A stretch of 64,000 nt of DNA from positions 8,009-72,008 of the forward strand of contig NZ_JABAZW010000013.1 in the NCBI RefSeq assembly GCF_018608325.1. The letters are read 5' to 3'. The notes beneath the pieces were generated by a model. It did not search any database. It saw only the letters and a program-made list of their open reading frames with translations, and was not told the DNA's origin. This document shows, one piece after another, positions 1 to 34,955 of this stretch (its first letter is position 1; every line of letters begins with the position of its first letter). The position numbers were made by a program, and so were the translations under genes. This DNA comes from Brevundimonas sp. Its GTDB lineage: Bacteria > Pseudomonadota > Alphaproteobacteria > Caulobacterales > Caulobacteraceae.

Positions 1-113
1 TGGCGCTGAAGATCGAGCGCTGGAGCAATGGCGCCGTCCCCGCCGCATCCATCTGTGGTGAACTTCGCAAGATCGCGAACGACCCGTCACCCCCATCCGC
101 CGAGGCCGCATAG
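1..113 (+). CDS. 3' end of an upstream phage early gene (partial)
   Basis: The frame is open from the window edge to TAG at 111-113 (...ELRKIANDPSPPSAEAA*). It has the same -EAA tail style as downstream early genes. Confidence 0.3.
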   Translation, partial: ALKIERWSNGAVPAASICGELRKIANDPSPPSAEAA

Positions 114-172
114 ATGGCCCAGGCTCCGAAATCACGCCGCGTACAGTCTGGCGTGACCGTCTCGCCGGGAGG

Positions 173-367
173 ATGGCCCCTCCCCCTCCACCGATCCTCT
201 CGGCGGGACACCCTCACATGCTGACCCCGGATGAACTCGACGAGCTTCGGGAGGTGTTGCGCCAGGAACTGGCCCGCGCCCTTCACCCGAGCGTCCTGCG
301 CCCGGCCACACCCCTTCCCGCCAACGACAGGGCTCCGCTCACCCCAGAACCGCCCGAGGCCGCCTAA
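173..367 (+). CDS. Hypothetical early protein (start uncertain: 173 or 218)
   Basis: From the ORF track. The ATG at 173 abuts GGGAGG with no spacer, so the ATG at 218 (MLTPDELDELREVLRQ...) is equally plausible. It ends ...PEPPEAA 3 nt before the next ATG. Confidence 0.35.
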   Translation: MAPPPPPILSAGHPHMLTPDELDELREVLRQELARALHPSVLRPATPLPANDRAPLTPEPPEAA

Positions 368-370
368 ACA

Positions 371-898
371 ATGACTGACACCCGGACAATTCCGCTCACG
401 AAGGGCTACGAGGTTGTCGTTGATGCCGCTGACTACGGCTGCCTGGCAACCTACCGCTGGCAAGCAAAGGTGGTAAGGCGCACTCCAGCCTCTAAGCCGC
501 ATATCTGCGCCGTTCGATCCACCGGCGGCGGTGGCCGCAAACGCATGATCTACATGCACCGTGAAATTATCGGCGCAAAAGCGGGTGAGATCGTCGATCA
601 CATAAACCGCAATCCTCTCGATAATCGACGAGTGAATCTTCGGATTGCGACGCGGTCTGGCAATGCGGTGAACCGTGAGTACGTCAATCCGACAGGATTC
701 CGGGGCGTCCATCCGGTCAAGCGGCGCTTCCGCGCGTCGTTGTCGGTGGACGGCTTCGTTCACCGGACCGCCATTTACGACACCCCTGAGGACGCCGCTC
801 GTGAATACGACCGGCTCGCCATGGCGCACCACGGCGCGTTCGCCGTCGTCAACTTTCCAACGCAACCCACAGAACCTCCGCCTCTGAACGCTGCCTGA
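371..898 (+). CDS. HNH endonuclease with C-terminal AP2-type DNA-binding domain
   Basis: HNH motif IVDHINRNPLDNRRVNLRIAT followed by an AP2-like segment GFRGVH..FRASLSVDG..YDTPEDAAREYDRLAMAHHGAFAVVNFP. Confidence 0.8.
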   Translation: MTDTRTIPLTKGYEVVVDAADYGCLATYRWQAKVVRRTPASKPHICAVRSTGGGGRKRMIYMHREIIGAKAGEIVDHINRNPLDNRRVNLRIATRSGNAVNREYVNPTGFRGVHPVKRRFRASLSVDGFVHRTAIYDTPEDAAREYDRLAMAHHGAFAVVNFPTQPTEPPPLNAA

Positions 899-957
899 GT
901 AGGCCCGAACAGACGAGCGGTCAGCAAATAACGAAACCAGATCAAACGGAGAACACT

Positions 958-1392
958 GTGAGCGCCGCGTTCGTCAAATCCCTGACCCGACAGATTGAAG
1001 ATCGTATGGGCGGAAGCGCCAAGGCCGCTGCAGCTGCTGGCGTCTCTCAGGGCCGCTGGTCCAGCTACGTCAACGAAGGCAACGACGCCTACGCCACCAC
1101 GACCATCCCGCTCCACCGCTTCATGAAGGTAGCGGGACCGGACGAGAAGTCGGCCCTGCTGAGTGTCTGGAGCCACGACTTCGCCACGCCCGGCGATTGC
1201 CTGAACACCGAGGCCAGCCAAGTCACCGAGGCGTCGGCGGAACTGCAGCGCGTCGTGCGTGAGGCCAAGGCCCGAGCTGGCGACGGCCCGATCTCACAGA
1301 TCGATCAGGCCCGCATCCTCAAGCTGGTCCTGATCGTCCACGCCGAAGCTGACGACGTGCGCTCCACCCTGATCAACAAAGGGGCTGCGTGA
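958..1392 (+). CDS. Putative phage regulatory protein (CII/CP76-like HTH; tentative)
   Basis: GTG start downstream of ACGGAGA. The N-terminal HTH-like stretch AAAAAGVSQGRWSSYVNEG supports the call. The stop overlaps the next start. Confidence 0.5.
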   Translation: MSAAFVKSLTRQIEDRMGGSAKAAAAAGVSQGRWSSYVNEGNDAYATTTIPLHRFMKVAGPDEKSALLSVWSHDFATPGDCLNTEASQVTEASAELQRVVREAKARAGDGPISQIDQARILKLVLIVHAEADDVRSTLINKGAA

Positions 1393-1820
1393 TGGGCGCG
1401 CTATGCCAGACGCCCACCAATCAGGGGCAGCACGTCTTTCGCATAGGCGACGACCGGGCCGTAAAATCGGTAGCTGGTCACCGGCTGCTGGCTGATGGGC
1501 TGGTCTCACTAACTCTTCCGCCAAGGCCGCTGACCGAGTCGGAAGCTAAGCGGCTGGCTTGGGGAATCCTGGCAGACCTTGCGCCGGATGAAGTGGCCCC
1601 TATTCCGCAGGTGGTGAACTACCGCGAAAGCGGTCGCTGTCAGGTCCTAACCCATCTGGCCGAAGGTCCCCGCCGCATACCCCAGTTGGCGGACTTGCTG
1701 AACTGGAACAGGCGCACCGTCGAGAGGCGGCTGGCAGAACTGATAGGCGACGGTCGCGTCAAGCGTGTCGCCCACTCACCCTACGACATCACTTTCGAAA
1801 TCGACCGGGAGGCTGCGTGA
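1389..1820 (+). CDS. Winged-helix DNA-binding protein (hypothetical)
   Basis: GTG 1389 or ATG 1392 within a GCTGCGTGATG junction that overlaps the upstream stop. Contains the wHTH-like segment RIPQLADLLNWNRRTVERRLAELIGDGRVKRV. Confidence 0.55.
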   Translation: MMGALCQTPTNQGQHVFRIGDDRAVKSVAGHRLLADGLVSLTLPPRPLTESEAKRLAWGILADLAPDEVAPIPQVVNYRESGRCQVLTHLAEGPRRIPQLADLLNWNRRTVERRLAELIGDGRVKRVAHSPYDITFEIDREAA

Positions 1821-2032
1821 TGTTCGGCTTCCGCTCCCGCAACCGCGTCACTCGCGCCAAGGCCGCTTTCGAGGCGGCTCACACCGAGCACAAAGCCGCC
1901 CAGCGCCGCCAAGACACCCGCCGAATGTCAATCGCAGCGGCAAACCTTCGGGCTGCGAACACTGAGTTGATGGCCGCCGAAGCCGCCGCTCATCCCAAGC
2001 CCGCACACCTTCCAACCCCACACGGAGCCTGA
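1817..2032 (+). CDS. Hypothetical early protein
   Basis: Same GCTGCGTGATG coupling junction as the previous gene. It is a 71-aa basic, Ala-rich protein with no domain recognised. Confidence 0.45.
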   Translation: MMFGFRSRNRVTRAKAAFEAAHTEHKAAQRRQDTRRMSIAAANLRAANTELMAAEAAAHPKPAHLPTPHGA

Positions 2033-2034
2033 AC

Positions 2035-2310
2035 ATGGCTGACGACGCTAATTTCGATGCTGGACCTGACGTCCTGAACTCTGCCGCCCAAGGTCGCCTG
2101 CGCAGCATCATCGAGCGTGTCGAGCGCTTGGAAGAGGATAAGGCCGCCGTCCAGAACGACATCAAGGAGGTCTTCGCCGAAGCCAAGGGTGAAGGCTACG
2201 ACGTGAAGGTGCTGCGCAAAGTCATCCGCATCCGCAAGCAGGACAAGGCCAAGCGTCAGGAAGAGGAATCCATCACTGACCTGTACCTCTCCGCCCTTGG
2301 GGAGATCTGA
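2035..2310 (+). CDS. GapR-like nucleoid-associated protein (DUF2312 family), phage-encoded
   Basis: 91 aa, colinear with Caulobacter GapR as I remember it: [66 protein letters not shown]. Confidence 0.85.
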
Positions 2311-2312
2311 CC

Positions 2313-2756
2313 ATGGCTGGATCAGTCAACAAGGTCATTCTGGTCGGCAATCTGGGCCGCGATCCGGAAATCCGCTCCATGCCGAACGGCGACCGCATCG
2401 CCAACCTGTCGATTGCGACCTCGGAAACCTGGCGCGACAAGTCCTCGGGCGAGCGCAAGGAAAAGACCGAATGGCACCGTGTCGTCGTGTTCAACGACAA
2501 CATCGTCAAGGTCGTCGAGAACTATGTGAAGAAGGGCTCGACCGTCTATATCGAGGGCGCGCTTCAGACCCGCAAATGGACCGATCAACAGGGCGTCGAG
2601 AAGTACTCGACCGAGATCGTGGTCAGCCGCTTCAAGGGCGAACTGACGATGCTGGGCGGCAAGCCTGAGGGCGCCGATCGCGCCGACGACACCCAATCTC
2701 ACCAATCGACCAGTCGTCAGGACAGCTATGACCTGAACGACGATATTCCATTCTGA
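2313..2756 (+). CDS. ssb: Single-stranded DNA-binding protein
   Basis: OB-fold SSB signature [30 protein letters not shown] and an acidic C-terminal tip DDIPF. Confidence 0.95.
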
Positions 2757-2766
2757 GGGCTCGCTC

Positions 2767-2931
2767 ATGGCCCGTCCTCAGACCCACACCGTTCAGCAGG
2801 CCTACATCGGGCGTGACGGCAAGCCCCGCTGCTTCGTCAAAGGCCACACGCTCCCCCTGTTCACGGACAAAATCCTGAACGAGGGCGACGCCGTCGTGAT
2901 CCGCGGTAATCGCGCGGAGCGTCCAGCATGA
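2767..2931 (+). CDS. Small hypothetical protein (54 aa, below the ORF-track cutoff)
   Basis: ATG at 2767, in frame to TGA at 2929-2931, which overlaps the next ATG (ATGA). It fills the only gap in the operon. Product: MARPQTHTVQQAYIGRDGKPRCFVKGHTLPLFTDKILNEGDAVVIRGNRAERPA. Confidence 0.4.
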   Translation: MARPQTHTVQQAYIGRDGKPRCFVKGHTLPLFTDKILNEGDAVVIRGNRAERPA

Positions 2932-3125
2932 CCCGCGCCACCAACAGCGGACACCCCGGCGCTGGCCAGTACGCCACCAGCCGTCGCGGCGGCGTGTCCA
3001 TGAACGACATCTGGCAGGCACAAGAAGCCATCGGGCAGCGCGCTACGCCGTCGATGATCGCCCGCTACCTGGGCCGCTGCGAGATCGACGTGCGCGTCCT
3101 GATGACGCCGGAGGCCGCAACGTGA
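2928..3125 (+). CDS. Hypothetical early protein
   Basis: From the ORF track. It is coupled at both ends (ATGA at 2928 and GTGA at 3122). No domain recognised. Confidence 0.45.
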   Translation: MTRATNSGHPGAGQYATSRRGGVSMNDIWQAQEAIGQRATPSMIARYLGRCEIDVRVLMTPEAAT

Positions 3126-3481
3126 GTGCCGGTCCTGAAGCCCGCCTGCAATTTGCCGTCGCCCGCTTCCTTGGCGTCGCTTGCCCAGACCTTCTGTGGT
3201 CGCACTTCCCGGCTGGGGAAGACCGCAATGCTATCGTGGGCCGCAAGCTGAAGGACATGGGCCTCAAACGGGGCTGGCCTGACATCATCCTATGCCTGCC
3301 GGGCGGTGTTTTGGGCGCCATCGAACTGAAAGCCCCCACTGGTCGCCTGTCGCCGGATCAAATCGCCTTCCGCGAAGCCCTGATCGCCGCTGGTGGTCAG
3401 TTCGCCCTGTGTCGGTCACTGGACGACGTAGAGGCCTGCCTTGCCGCCTGGAACGTCCCGCTACGAGCGAGGGCGCAATGA
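3122..3481 (+). CDS. VRR-NUC domain nuclease
   Basis: Motif GWPDIILCLPGGVLGAIELKAPTGRLSPDQIAF (PD-(D/E)xK VRR-NUC type). GTG start overlaps the upstream stop. Confidence 0.8.
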   Translation: MSAGPEARLQFAVARFLGVACPDLLWSHFPAGEDRNAIVGRKLKDMGLKRGWPDIILCLPGGVLGAIELKAPTGRLSPDQIAFREALIAAGGQFALCRSLDDVEACLAAWNVPLRARAQ

Positions 3482-3882
3482 GGGTCACTGGTCAGGAAGT
3501 CATAGCCTATGTGGCGGAATTCTACGATCTGAGCGTTGGCGACCTGAAGGGAACCAGTCGGGCAAGGCGTCTGGCTCGGCCACGCCAGATCGCTTGCTAT
3601 GTGATGCGGTGCGTCTGCCCGCATCTGAGCTTTCCAGCCATAGGACGCCTTCTTGGGGGGCGCGACCACACGACTGTGCTTCACGCAGTGAGCAAGGTGT
3701 CGGAGTTGATGGCTGACGCCCACGGATTTGAATCCGATGTCGCCGACATCCTGGCCCACTTTTATCGGCCAACGTCAGCGGACCTATACCTGCGCGCACG
3801 GATCATTGACGCTGAGCGTCACCTTGAGGCGCTGAAGGCGCAGGCTGCTGGATCACCCGCCCTGTTCGAGGCCGCAGCATGA
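3478..3882 (+). CDS. DnaA C-terminal (domain IV)-like DNA-binding protein
   Basis: The ATG at 3478 overlaps the upstream stop (ATGA). Contains RPRQIACYVMRCVCPHLSFPAIGRLLGGRDHTTVLHAVSKV, which matches the DnaA domain IV HTH. The ORF-track start at 3292 overlaps the VRR-NUC gene and is not used. Confidence 0.8.
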   Translation: MRVTGQEVIAYVAEFYDLSVGDLKGTSRARRLARPRQIACYVMRCVCPHLSFPAIGRLLGGRDHTTVLHAVSKVSELMADAHGFESDVADILAHFYRPTSADLYLRARIIDAERHLEALKAQAAGSPALFEAAA

Positions 3883-4637
3883 GCGCCATCGCTTACTTGC
3901 AGCGACTTCTCGACGCCGGACTAGCCCTGGACGTCGCCATGATCGCTGCGCGTGAGCATGAGGCAGTGATGGCTGAATCCGGCCCACGCCGGTCAAAGGG
4001 AGCGCTACGCCAAGCTCGATACGAAGAGCGAAAGCGTCAGAAAGCGTCAGAAAGCGTCAGAAATGACGCTTCTGACGATACTCCTTCCCTCCCTTCTTCC
4101 CCCCACACCCCCCAACAACCCACCCATCCACGGGGAGATATATCTACCCCGCGCGAGAAGGCCGTTTCGAAGGCTGACCACGCCAAGGCCTTCGTCGAGT
4201 TCTGGACTGCCTACCCCCGGAAAGTCGGCAAGGACGCGGCGGCCAAGGCGTTCACCAAGGCGCTGGCGCGGGCAGACGGTCCAGACCCGATTTCAACGAT
4301 CCTCGACGGCCTGCGCAGAGCCCTCCCCGGCTGGGACGATCCGGAATTCATCCCCCACCCGACCACCTGGCTGAACCGAGGCAGCTGGAACGACGACGCC
4401 CCCATACCCCGCCGAGATCACCATGACCGCCCTGCAAACGATCACCGCCCCCGCCCTTCCAACGCCGCGCCTTCCCGTGCCGAGCGTGGTCAATCAGCCG
4501 CTCTTGCAGTGCTTGCTCGCCGGGGGGCTCTACCGAGACAAGATCAAGGCTGGAGTGCTTTCGACGAACCACCTTCCGGACCTGCGCCAGCTGGTGGCGG
4601 AGCTGGAGCCTTCGGTTCGCCCCGCCACGCTGCCTGA
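3879..4637 (+). CDS. Putative replication initiation/organiser protein (contains an iteron cluster)
   Basis: Carries a segment common in phage replication proteins: FVEFWTAYPRKVGKDAAAKAF..HPTTWLNRGSWNDD. Iterons lie in the linker-coding part. The last ~70 codons are low-complexity and overlap the next gene. Confidence 0.6.
   Translation: MSAIAYLQRLLDAGLALDVAMIAAREHEAVMAESGPRRSKGALRQARYEERKRQKASESVRNDASDDTPSLPSSPHTPQQPTHPRGDISTPREKAVSKADHAKAFVEFWTAYPRKVGKDAAAKAFTKALARADGPDPISTILDGLRRALPGWDDPEFIPHPTTWLNRGSWNDDAPIPRRDHHDRPANDHRPRPSNAAPSRAERGQSAALAVLARRGALPRQDQGWSAFDEPPSGPAPAGGGAGAFGSPRHAA
4031..4077. repeat. Iteron-like cluster: 3 exact tandem 10-mers AAAGCGTCAG plus one inverted partial copy; candidate phage origin
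   Basis: AAAGCGTCAG occurs at 4031, 4041 and 4051. ACGCTTCTGACG at 4066-4077 is the inverted partial copy. It is followed by a ~50-nt C/T-only tract (4081-4131) and the palindrome AGATATATCT (4136-4145). Confidence 0.6.
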
Positions 4638-4932
4638 GGCCGCAGCAGTTCTTGACCGGCTGTTTGCCCACTACTTGCGGCCAGACCTGCCGAACCACAT
4701 CGAGGAGAACCGCCTCGACGACTGGTACGACGACCTGGAGGGCATCCCGCTGGACATCCTGCAGGCGGCTGCGCGGGACTGGCGCCGGAGCGAGGCCAAG
4801 TACGCCCCGACGCCCGGGCAGTTCCTCGAAAAGACCAAGCGCTACACCGACCCTCGGACCTACGCCTACAACATCGGACGCATGGTGATTGAGGCTTTGG
4901 AACAGATCGAAACCCAGAAGGCCGCAGCATGA
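4423..4932 (+). CDS. Hypothetical early protein
   Basis: From the ORF track. The composition looks protein-like (..LLQCLLAGGLYRDKIKAG..DDWYDDLEGIPLDILQAAARDWRRSEAKYAPTPGQFLEK..). The stop overlaps the next ATG in an AGGCCGCAGCATGAGC junction. Confidence 0.55.
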   Translation: MTALQTITAPALPTPRLPVPSVVNQPLLQCLLAGGLYRDKIKAGVLSTNHLPDLRQLVAELEPSVRPATLPEAAAVLDRLFAHYLRPDLPNHIEENRLDDWYDDLEGIPLDILQAAARDWRRSEAKYAPTPGQFLEKTKRYTDPRTYAYNIGRMVIEALEQIETQKAAA

Positions 4933-5573
4933 GCAAAGCCCGCATAAAGAACGGCAAGCCCAAGATCCGCTCCAAGGGCGGCCGCCCACGCAAGGAAGGC
5001 GCACGCTATCCCTCAGGAGAGCTTCGCCCCGCTGGTCCGAACCCCGAGGTCATCGTCCGCCGCAAGGCCCTATGCGGAGACATCACCATGGCGACGAACC
5101 CCATCGACGTGATGCTGGCCAATCGCTGGATCACGGAGGACCAGCACCGCACCGCCGCGCGCTATCGTCAGGACCATCGATCGGCAGCCCTGTGCGGTCC
5201 GACCGTACCGACCCAGCGCGACCTTTCAGCCCCAGAAGGCGTCGACACCCGCGACCAGTCTTTCGCCACCATGCCCGACAAGGACATCGCCGCCGTATGG
5301 GATAGCGCCATGAGCCGCACGCCGCCTGCCGCGAATGACCAGCACGCCGGTCAGGCCCGCGCGATGGACCGCTACCGTGAGGCCAACCGTATCCTGACCG
5401 TGGCCCAGCGCAACGAGGTCAACGACGTAGTGCTACTCGACAGTTGGCCCCAATGGGTTCTCCAGCGCCGCGCCGGGAACTTCACGTCGTCATGGGAGAG
5501 AAAGCGCGAGCTGTTGATCGACGGCCTGGACTTGATCCAGGAGATCTATGGCCCACGGAGGAAGGCGGCATGA
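4929..5573 (+). CDS. Hypothetical protein, last gene of the early operon (basic N-terminus)
   Basis: From the ORF track, with a coupled start. No domain recognised. Its position fits a late-gene regulator, but nothing else supports that role. Confidence 0.6.
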   Translation: MSKARIKNGKPKIRSKGGRPRKEGARYPSGELRPAGPNPEVIVRRKALCGDITMATNPIDVMLANRWITEDQHRTAARYRQDHRSAALCGPTVPTQRDLSAPEGVDTRDQSFATMPDKDIAAVWDSAMSRTPPAANDQHAGQARAMDRYREANRILTVAQRNEVNDVVLLDSWPQWVLQRRAGNFTSSWERKRELLIDGLDLIQEIYGPRRKAA

Positions 5574-34253: not shown

Positions 34254-34955
34254 TCAGTTGAGGCTATGCAAAGCTCCGTCAGGCAACGGGCGTTGCAGGG
34301 CCTTCGCCTCGGCCCATGGCGCTGTCATCCAGGCCTCGAACTCGTCTGGCTCGGTCAGGATCACCGGCATGGCCTTGGGGTGGACCGCCTTCACCGGCTC
34401 GCTGGGATCGGTCGTCAGGAACGCCATGAGGTCGATCGTCTCCTTGCCGGTCTTGATCTTCCGAACCCCGGTCCAGCCCGACAGGTGGATGCCCGCGAAG
34501 AAGGCCAGCGGTTCGTCGCCCGGCAGACTGAACCACACCGGCTTGTATTTGCCCTCCGCATCCCGCCCTGGTTCGCTGAAGGCCGTGAATGGGACCAGAC
34601 AGCGGTTGGCAGGCTCTAGCCACGGCTTCCAGTGCGACGAGGTCGTGTTGCGGACGTTCGTCGTTCCGCTGTCCGGCTCCACCTCCAGCAGGGCTGGGAA
34701 ATCCACGTCCTTGCCCTTGGCGCGTAGCTTGTCGGCCCGCTTGGTTGCGGCGTCGAAGATCGCTTTCTTGGACGACGGCATGCCCCAGCGCGCCAGCGCC
34801 AGCTCTCGGACGCCGTCAGATCCTACACGGACGATGGGCGCGGCATAGTCGGGATAGATGTCGCCCGGCGCCAGGTTTCCGACCGTTGACCGCATAGCCT
34901 TCGACAGGTCCATGATCGCCTGAGGGCCGCTGCGCTGTCTGTAGAGATTGCACAT
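34254..34955 (-). CDS. SOS-response-associated peptidase (SRAP/YedK-HMCES family) abasic-site processing protein
   Basis: The N-terminal MCN (catalytic Cys2), together with its length and internal motifs, is typical of the SRAP family. Confidence 0.85.
   Translation of the reverse strand: MCNLYRQRSGPQAIMDLSKAMRSTVGNLAPGDIYPDYAAPIVRVGSDGVRELALARWGMPSSKKAIFDAATKRADKLRAKGKDVDFPALLEVEPDSGTTNVRNTTSSHWKPWLEPANRCLVPFTAFSEPGRDAEGKYKPVWFSLPGDEPLAFFAGIHLSGWTGVRKIKTGKETIDLMAFLTTDPSEPVKAVHPKAMPVILTEPDEFEAWMTAPWAEAKALQRPLPDGALHSLN

Follow-up and report, generated by a model that had tools for sequence, protein, structure and literature searches.

A prophage-borne GapR homologue in the early replication operon of a temperate Brevundimonas phage: a functional-looking clamp that may supplement host GapR

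The window, by which we mean the whole 64,000-nucleotide stretch of DNA that was analyzed (contig C108:8009-72008 of a 3.5-Mb Brevundimonas assembly in 181 contigs), begins with a prophage of a temperate Brevundimonas phage, which occupies its first ~32 kb. The original prediction was that this DNA carries a prophage-encoded homologue of the nucleoid-associated protein GapR (DUF2312), and the prophage setting is borne out by the terminase, portal, capsid, tail, and lysis genes that share the contig with it (Table 1). Upstream on the contig, a leftward arm encodes a Rad52-like annealing protein/recombinase and a cI-like HTH repressor, and to the right host-type genes (GH3, TetR, MFS) are found from ~37 kb. 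A gene for an SOS-response-associated peptidase (SRAP) follows the lysis genes and precedes the first clear host genes, close to where the prophage would end on the right. GC content is 0.555 at 6-8 kb versus ~0.64 elsewhere. When the left end of the contig was compared with the region right of the lysis genes in a search for att sites, no direct repeat exceeded 14 nt; there was no integrase among the ORFs scanned, and neither the window nor the 8 kb upstream of it contains a tRNA. The left end of the prophage probably runs off the contig.

Within the prophage, gapR is the seventh gene of a rightward early/replication operon and is followed by ssb (Table 1). Its Shine-Dalgarno sequence sits within the last codons of the upstream ORF, orf70, whose TGA stop occupies 2030-2032; orf70 shares 4 nt with the preceding gene and stops 2 nt short of gapR, and only 2 nt separate the gapR stop from the ssb start. 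Throughout the operon the spacing between genes is -4 to +59 nt and includes overlaps of 4 nt, as is typical of translationally coupled genes, and no credible terminator was found between window positions 1 and 6300. The placement of gapR directly upstream of a phage ssb, in a phage replication operon, was thus as predicted: the downstream gene matches both PF00436 and phrog_44, and ssb, nucleases, and replication-initiation genes follow one another in a tightly packed rightward run. An ORF on the opposite strand that overlaps gapR (1848-2186, minus strand) was treated as a high-GC artifact.

Just upstream of the Cro-like gene that opens the operon, at C108 7840-7880 and ~130-170 nt before window position 1, there is a promoter-like sequence (TTGACC-17 nt-GAATAT) with repeated TGTTCAC / GTGAATA operator-like motifs, and on the opposite strand lies a divergent 147-aa ORF that belongs to no family. 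As the seventh gene of a tightly coupled operon that opens at a Cro-like HTH gene, gapR is probably repressed in the lysogen. By its operon position it would be an early lytic gene, and an effect of its product in the lysogen seems less likely.

Table 1. Features of the prophage in the window and of the chromosomal gapR gene (window coordinates unless another contig is named; a single number is the position given for that gene)
Feature	Position	Strand	Evidence and remarks
Early/replication operon	1-5573	+	Starts ~130 nt before the window; Pfam and PHROG matches
Cro-like HTH gene, 81 aa	before window position 1	+	Operon gene 1
64-aa ORF		+	Operon gene 2
HNH endonuclease	371-898	+	Operon gene 3; Pfam/PHROG
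orf144		+	Operon gene 4
orf143, wHTH protein	1389-1820	+	Operon gene 5
orf70, 71 aa, Ala/Arg-rich	1817-2032	+	Operon gene 6
Shine-Dalgarno GGAG	2024-2027	+	7 nt 5' of the gapR ATG; read from the sequence
Prophage gapR	2035-2310	+	ATG-to-TGA ORF, 91 codons/91 aa; PF10073/UPF0335 DNA-clamp family
ssb, 147 aa, bacterial-type SSB	2313-2756	+	PF00436 E 1.2e-37; phrog_44 E 8.8e-48
Two small ORFs	between ssb and VRR-NUC	+	From operon order
VRR-NUC nuclease	3122-3481	+	Pfam/PHROG; also in related contig L004
DnaA domain-IV-only protein, without AAA+ module	3478-3882	+	PF08299 E 3e-23; also in L004
Replication-initiation/DnaD-like protein	3879-4637	+	Pfam/PHROG
Prophage late region	8772-32132	+	PHROG matches, E 1e-17 to 1e-126
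Small terminase	8772	+	PHROG
Large terminase	9148	+	PHROG
Portal	10539	+	PHROG
Structural/major capsid-type protein	13534	+	PHROG
Head morphogenesis	16088	+	PHROG
Tail fibers	25786 and 28428	+	PHROG
Endolysin	31515	+	PHROG
SRAP	34257-34955	-	PF02586 E 7e-16
Chromosomal gapR, 91 aa	G000:C18:4564-4779	-	PF10073

The product of the prophage gene belongs to the GapR/UPF0335/DUF2312 family by a match that covers the whole domain: residues 18-89 align to positions 1-72 of the 72-position PF10073 (GapR_DNA-bd) profile with an E value of 4.4e-33 and 113.1 bits, against a curated cutoff of 22.6 bits. A PHROG profile search matched it to phrog_4212 (E 4.8e-32), which, together with its location in a phage genome, places it in the phage-borne GapR group. 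The PDB chains of Caulobacter GapR (6jyk, 6ozx, and 6cg8) aligned end to end over residues 1-91 (E 1.7e-34 to 1.4e-31), confirming the colinearity that had been claimed, and 65 of 89 positions (73%) are identical between the two proteins. We conclude that, on the evidence of these alignments, the prophage gene is an intact GapR homologue. Compared with Caulobacter crescentus GapR (CCNA_03428 / CC_3319; UPF0335, PF10073; PDB 6CG8, 6OZX, 6JYK), which has 89 residues and is colinear with it from the MADDA N terminus to the C-terminal GEI, the 91-residue prophage protein has two extra N-terminal residues, Arg in place of K59, and Thr at the position equivalent to L79. The two genes also differ in context, the Caulobacter gene lying in a chromosomal rpmJ-gapR-gapS arrangement and the prophage gene in an early replication operon, and we do not expect the essentiality and cell-cycle control of the former to apply to the phage copy.

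A separate host copy had been expected elsewhere in this genome, and a genome-wide PF10073 search returned exactly two copies, the prophage gene and one on contig C18 (Table 1). The host protein, also of 91 aa, aligns to prophage GapR without gaps at 85% identity and 93% similarity; the 14 substitutions are concentrated in helix 1 and the C-terminal helix, and the DNA-facing and salt-bridge residues are shared. The two genes are 80% identical as DNA, with the similarity ending at the borders of the coding sequence and the flanks unrelated. A recent duplication of host gapR was ruled out by this stop in homology at the CDS ends and by a synonymous divergence (dS) of ~1. The C18 gene lies in the order rpmJ - gapR - small basic protein (137 aa), near genes for a sigma-54 regulator and a lytic transglycosylase, and because an rpmJ-gapR-gapS-like context is held in 51 loci across Brevundimonas we take the C18 copy to be the chromosomal housekeeping gene. 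The prophage copy departs from this synteny, with orf70 upstream where chromosomal orthologues have rpmJ, and ssb downstream where they have the gapS-like gene of 103-137 aa; no gapS-like partner lies beside it. Across the genus, the protein encoded after gapR has 103 aa and is a homologue of the host 137-aa protein. This gene 3' of chromosomal gapR (L002 1066-1479, minus strand, with equivalents in the 51 loci) encodes a conserved basic protein of 103-137 aa that has no Pfam family; its counterpart 3' of Caulobacter gapR has been named gapS, a suppressor locus, in a preprint.

We compared the prophage protein with the residues that are known to matter in Caulobacter GapR, taking the six channel lysines from PMC6853979, the roles of K59, R65/K66, and E28 from PMC7373187, and the interfaces from PMC7498317. 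K34, K42, K49, K56, K59, and K66 line the DNA channel of the Caulobacter protein, and mutation shows that they are needed for DNA binding (PMC6853979, PMC7373187). Prophage GapR keeps a basic residue at every one of these positions (K/K/K/K/R/K), exactly as do the host copy and all 51 chromosomal Brevundimonas copies, the K59-to-R change being common to every Brevundimonas copy. The E28-R65 structural pair is also retained. The antiparallel coiled-coil dimer and the tetramer interface are held together by hydrophobic cores and by the salt bridges R26-E47, E28-R65, E31-K66, K60/R63-E74, and D68-K71 (PMC7498317), and all of these dimer and tetramer salt-bridge residues are the same in the prophage, host, and Caulobacter proteins. 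In the hydrophobic cores, only V/L, I/M, I/L, and V/I swaps separate the prophage protein from the host copy, and relative to Caulobacter the residues are identical or conservatively replaced (I37V, F53Y, V62I).

An AlphaFold2 monomer of prophage GapR (mean pLDDT 83.7) has predicted helices at residues 16-52 and 57-87, which agrees with the two-helix V-shape of open-form GapR, where α1 spans residues 13-51 and α2 residues 55-89 (PMC7498317). A Foldseek search of this model against the PDB returned two chance matches only (E above 6), a two-helix hairpin being a poor query, and because that search was uninformative we base the structural assignment on the sequence alignment to the PDB GapR chains. 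Selection was gauged from substitution rates: dN/dS within the phage lineage ranges from 0.05, measured against a 96%-identical phage allele, to 0.22, and between the prophage and host copies it is 0.11 at a dS of ~0.98. These ratios indicate that gapR has long been maintained under constraint in the phage lineage. The conservation of contacts, interfaces, and fold together with these ratios argues for a maintained, functional-looking clamp and not a decaying passenger, and the retained DNA contacts and interfaces and the purifying selection argue against a pure poison subunit that does not bind DNA. From residue conservation, we infer that four subunits could close into a ring around DNA that is overtwisted or AT-rich and could stimulate gyrase and topoisomerase IV.

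One change stands apart from this conservation. T81 (codon 2275-2277) puts Thr where the equivalent of Caulobacter L79 is Leu in 51 of 51 chromosomal Brevundimonas copies, and Thr occurs here only in six ssb-linked prophage copies, accompanied by an A-to-S change two residues earlier. The L79 equivalent falls within residues 78-87, a C-terminal hydrophobic patch through which the GapR ring is closed (PMC7498317). Since the Leu-to-Thr change is in this closed-ring interface patch, the phage protein may behave differently from host GapR.

GapR is present in 116 of 121 Brevundimonas genomes, including all 96 of high quality, and 18 of the 116 carry two to four GapR-domain genes, with four in G001. 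The rpmJ context was never found at the extra Brevundimonas copies; four of these have ssb directly downstream and others have phage-type neighbors. Two copies are divergent, one of 223 aa, in which the GapR domain is N-terminal and a long C-terminal extension follows it (L052, 35% identity), and one of 100 aa (L077, 45% identity). The arrangement orf144-orf143-orf70-gapR-ssb recurs as a cassette in other Brevundimonas prophages and on independent metagenome contigs, where genes for cI/Cro-type regulators and an ERF recombinase lie next to it, and gapR-ssb adjacency recurs in L004-L009, L045, L046, L071, and L075. The presence of the same cassette on independent contigs ruled out an assembly chimera. 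In the ssb-linked cassette orf70 is always directly upstream of gapR, with 83-89% identity in L004-L009 and 60% in L071 and L087; its product matches no Pfam or PHROG profile and may be a functional partner of phage GapR or of SSB.

Relatives of prophage GapR are widespread in phages. With tblastn at E 1e-5 we found them in 154 GenBank phage records, which by organism name and listed host are overwhelmingly alphaproteobacterial phages, among them Brevundimonas jumbo phages (77-80% identity), the Caulobacter phages DMCA, Jess A, and Cr30, and many Rhizobium and Rhodobacter phages; GenBank phage records already label the genes "DUF2312 domain-containing protein" or "UPF0335 protein". Four records of phages of Microcystis, a cyanobacterium, appear in this tally, and the homologues encoded in three of them, OM681334, PP438417, and PP395639, are 67% identical to the prophage protein; apart from Microcystis, all organism names and hosts among the matches listed are alphaproteobacterial. 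Unless the host assignment of these records is doubtful, the gene has spread beyond the alphaproteobacteria.

IMG/VR yielded 171 contigs with relatives. For the neighbors of viral loci we used only clusters confirmed by PHROG, as an automatic pick of the downstream ORF gave some spurious antisense-looking ORFs in this high-GC DNA. None of the best 80 IMG/VR loci has the chromosomal context, and ssb is adjacent in 7 of the 80 and absent from the adjacent position in the other 73. With so few, ssb adjacency was rejected as a general rule, and it carries little functional weight. A DNA helicase gene (phrog_62) lies immediately upstream in 16 of these best 80 loci, and in others the neighbors are RecE-type or exonuclease VIII nucleases or Erf. 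The common theme of phage gapR genes is a replication/recombination module, and not ssb specifically.

Phage gapR genes are in fact already documented and common, and the prophage copy is an ordinary further example. The known ones, from ΦCr30, the Caulobacter phages DMCA, Jess A, and SR18, the Brevundimonas jumbo phages (Kikimora and others), and Erythrobacter phage R34L1 (ORF28), resemble it in encoding small stand-alone GapR-domain proteins of alphaproteobacterial phages, usually among replication/recombination genes. Prophage GapR is 62-77% identical to these phage proteins and closer, at 84-88%, to chromosomal Brevundimonas GapR, and unlike those listed it lies in a specific orf70-gapR-ssb cassette of a temperate phage. 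In ΦCr30, gapR is two genes upstream of the sliding clamp gene and just before the clamp loader gene, and it is transcribed during infection (bioRxiv 10.1101/2021.01.09.426053); in Jess A it follows a DNA helicase gene. In the temperate Caulobacter phage DMCA (L080 4001-8200), gapR shares a rightward operon with an annotated GcrA-like regulator and with an adenine methyltransferase, both a few genes downstream of it, so that this phage brings together homologues of several cell-cycle and nucleoid factors of its host.

In a review, GapR(Cr30) and T4 DsbA are named as phage homologues (PMC7349988); for DsbA, which binds dsDNA at late promoters, homology to GapR is proposed in PMC7824862 as well. 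Like prophage GapR, DsbA is small, helical, phage-encoded, and dsDNA-binding; its role in T4 is transcriptional. No coliphage was among the ten commonest organism names listed for the tblastn search of phage records at E 1e-5, and T4 DsbA is too distant from prophage GapR to be found at that threshold. The Erythrobacter phage GapR has been annotated as an auxiliary gene (PMC12185513). Our literature searches returned no paper testing what any phage GapR does.

We placed 81 GapR sequences in a maximum-likelihood tree, with context labels assigned before the tree was built. All Brevundimonas-associated copies, whether chromosomal, prophage, or from the jumbo phage Kikimora, form one clade (100/100), and Caulobacter GapR with three Caulobacter phages forms the other (100/100), so that the phage copies match their host genus. 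The prophage copy falls in a 93/96 subclade of nine ssb-linked prophage copies and one other extra copy, nested inside the chromosomal diversity. AU tests, carried out once the tree was known, rejected one common clade of all the extra (prophage-type) copies and phage copies of Brevundimonas (p 0.0019), which points to repeated transfer between the chromosome and mobile elements, and did not reject a single origin of the ssb-linked set (p 0.30). In 9 of 18 genomes the extra copies rank 1-2 of ~47 in nearness to the chromosomal gene of their own host; the prophage copy ranks 18 of 47 and is not specially close.

Sliding-window comparisons revealed mosaic-looking alleles across L008/L009, L045/L046, and L070/L071. 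The L008 gene is 90-100% identical to the prophage allele over nt 1-150 and 60-77% over nt 165-240, and its 3' part is 90-100% identical to the L045 type; the prophage copy of G100 (L071) is 90-100% identical to the chromosomal gapR of its own host over nt 76-210. Because the middle of the gene is conserved in every such comparison, these patterns are only suggestive of recombination, both of phage alleles with one another and of prophage gapR with the chromosomal gene.

Given these results, we favor with moderate confidence the explanation that the phage gene is a dosage supplement, whose extra GapR in lytic replication would help host gyrase and topoisomerase IV to remove positive supercoils. 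Binding to overtwisted DNA and aid to gyrase and topoisomerase IV are established for Caulobacter GapR, as cited in PMC8510090 and PMC12185513. By homology, prophage GapR would be a dimer of dimers that forms a ring around duplex DNA that is overtwisted or rich in AT. Once the prophage is induced or a cell is infected, the protein would most likely be expressed together with phage SSB, the nucleases, and the replication initiator, raising the cellular pool of GapR. Homotetramers, or mixed tetramers that include the host protein (85% identical), would bind to positively supercoiled DNA in front of phage forks and of strong phage transcription units, where the clamp would help host gyrase and topoisomerase IV relieve the strain of overtwisting. 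Such help to phage replication fits best because the DNA contacts are kept, the gene is under purifying selection, and across many phages it sits in replication/recombination modules. Tetramer formation, a role in DNA topology, the timing of expression, and a benefit to the phage are what we infer from this evidence, and the host has a GapR of its own, so that a need for more of it is an assumption.

So close a homologue might instead act on the host clamp itself, through mixed oligomers in which the phage subunit alters ring opening, residence time, or partner choice, and so diverts GapR/topoisomerase activity to phage DNA or disturbs host replication. Co-assembly would be sterically plausible at 85% identity, with all interface salt bridges identical and the core changes conservative, and the lineage-specific L-to-T change in the C-terminal interface patch is consistent with an altered clamp. 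The clustering of phage copies with the GapR of their own host genus, and the nearness of many extra copies to their own host gene, would also suit such hijacking or poisoning, but both the capture of host gapR and recombination with it would produce the same genus matching, and the prophage copy, at rank 18, does not follow the second pattern. A pure dominant-negative would moreover be expected to lose its DNA contacts, and here all are kept under purifying selection; we consider hijacking by mixed oligomers unlikely. A more elaborate version holds that phage gapR is kept host-matched by repeated chromosomal recombination since the subunits must co-assemble, and that in the ssb-linked lineage the L-to-T change makes mixed tetramers open or close differently, redirecting clamp/topoisomerase activity away from the host chromosome and onto phage DNA. 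The genus clustering, the rejection of a single origin, the mosaic-looking alleles, and the shared interface salt bridges keep the host-matched reading compatible with the data, and we give the whole proposal little credence.

The protein could instead work on transcription, in a manner resembling the suggestion for T4 DsbA, by binding AT-rich phage DNA and either activating or de-repressing phage genes or competing with the coating of AT-richer regions by host GapR. PMC8510090 and PMC13408042 describe a preference of GapR for AT-rich DNA and effects on transcription, the prophage has AT-richer islands such as that at 6-8 kb, and the proposed kinship with a T4 late-promoter protein (PMC7824862) points the same way. 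The gene context, here and in other phages, is nevertheless one of replication and recombination and not of regulatory modules, no specific binding sites were identified, and the DNA-facing residues are almost identical to those of the nonspecific host clamp, all of which makes an anti-silencing factor improbable. Finally, phage copies nested inside host-genus chromosomal diversity, and the repeated transfer implied by rejection of a single clade, are what one would see if gapR were a neutral passenger, a recently captured host gene with no phage role. Against this, a dS of ~1 means that the capture was not recent, DNA similarity to the host gene ends exactly at the CDS borders, dN/dS is low within the phage lineage, the same cassette occurs on independent contigs, and the gene is widespread in unrelated phage types in both GenBank and IMG/VR; we regard a passenger as very improbable.

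As a single gene, the prophage gapR matters little, being one more example of the GapR homologues of alphaproteobacterial phages. What may give it wider interest is that GapR is one of the few host nucleoid/topology factors carried by many unrelated phages of one bacterial class, where it agrees with the host genus and is consistently found in replication/recombination modules. Any temperate phage of Brevundimonas or Caulobacter whose gapR is small and can be deleted cleanly would provide a convenient system in which to distinguish extra supercoil-sensing capacity from a subverted host clamp.
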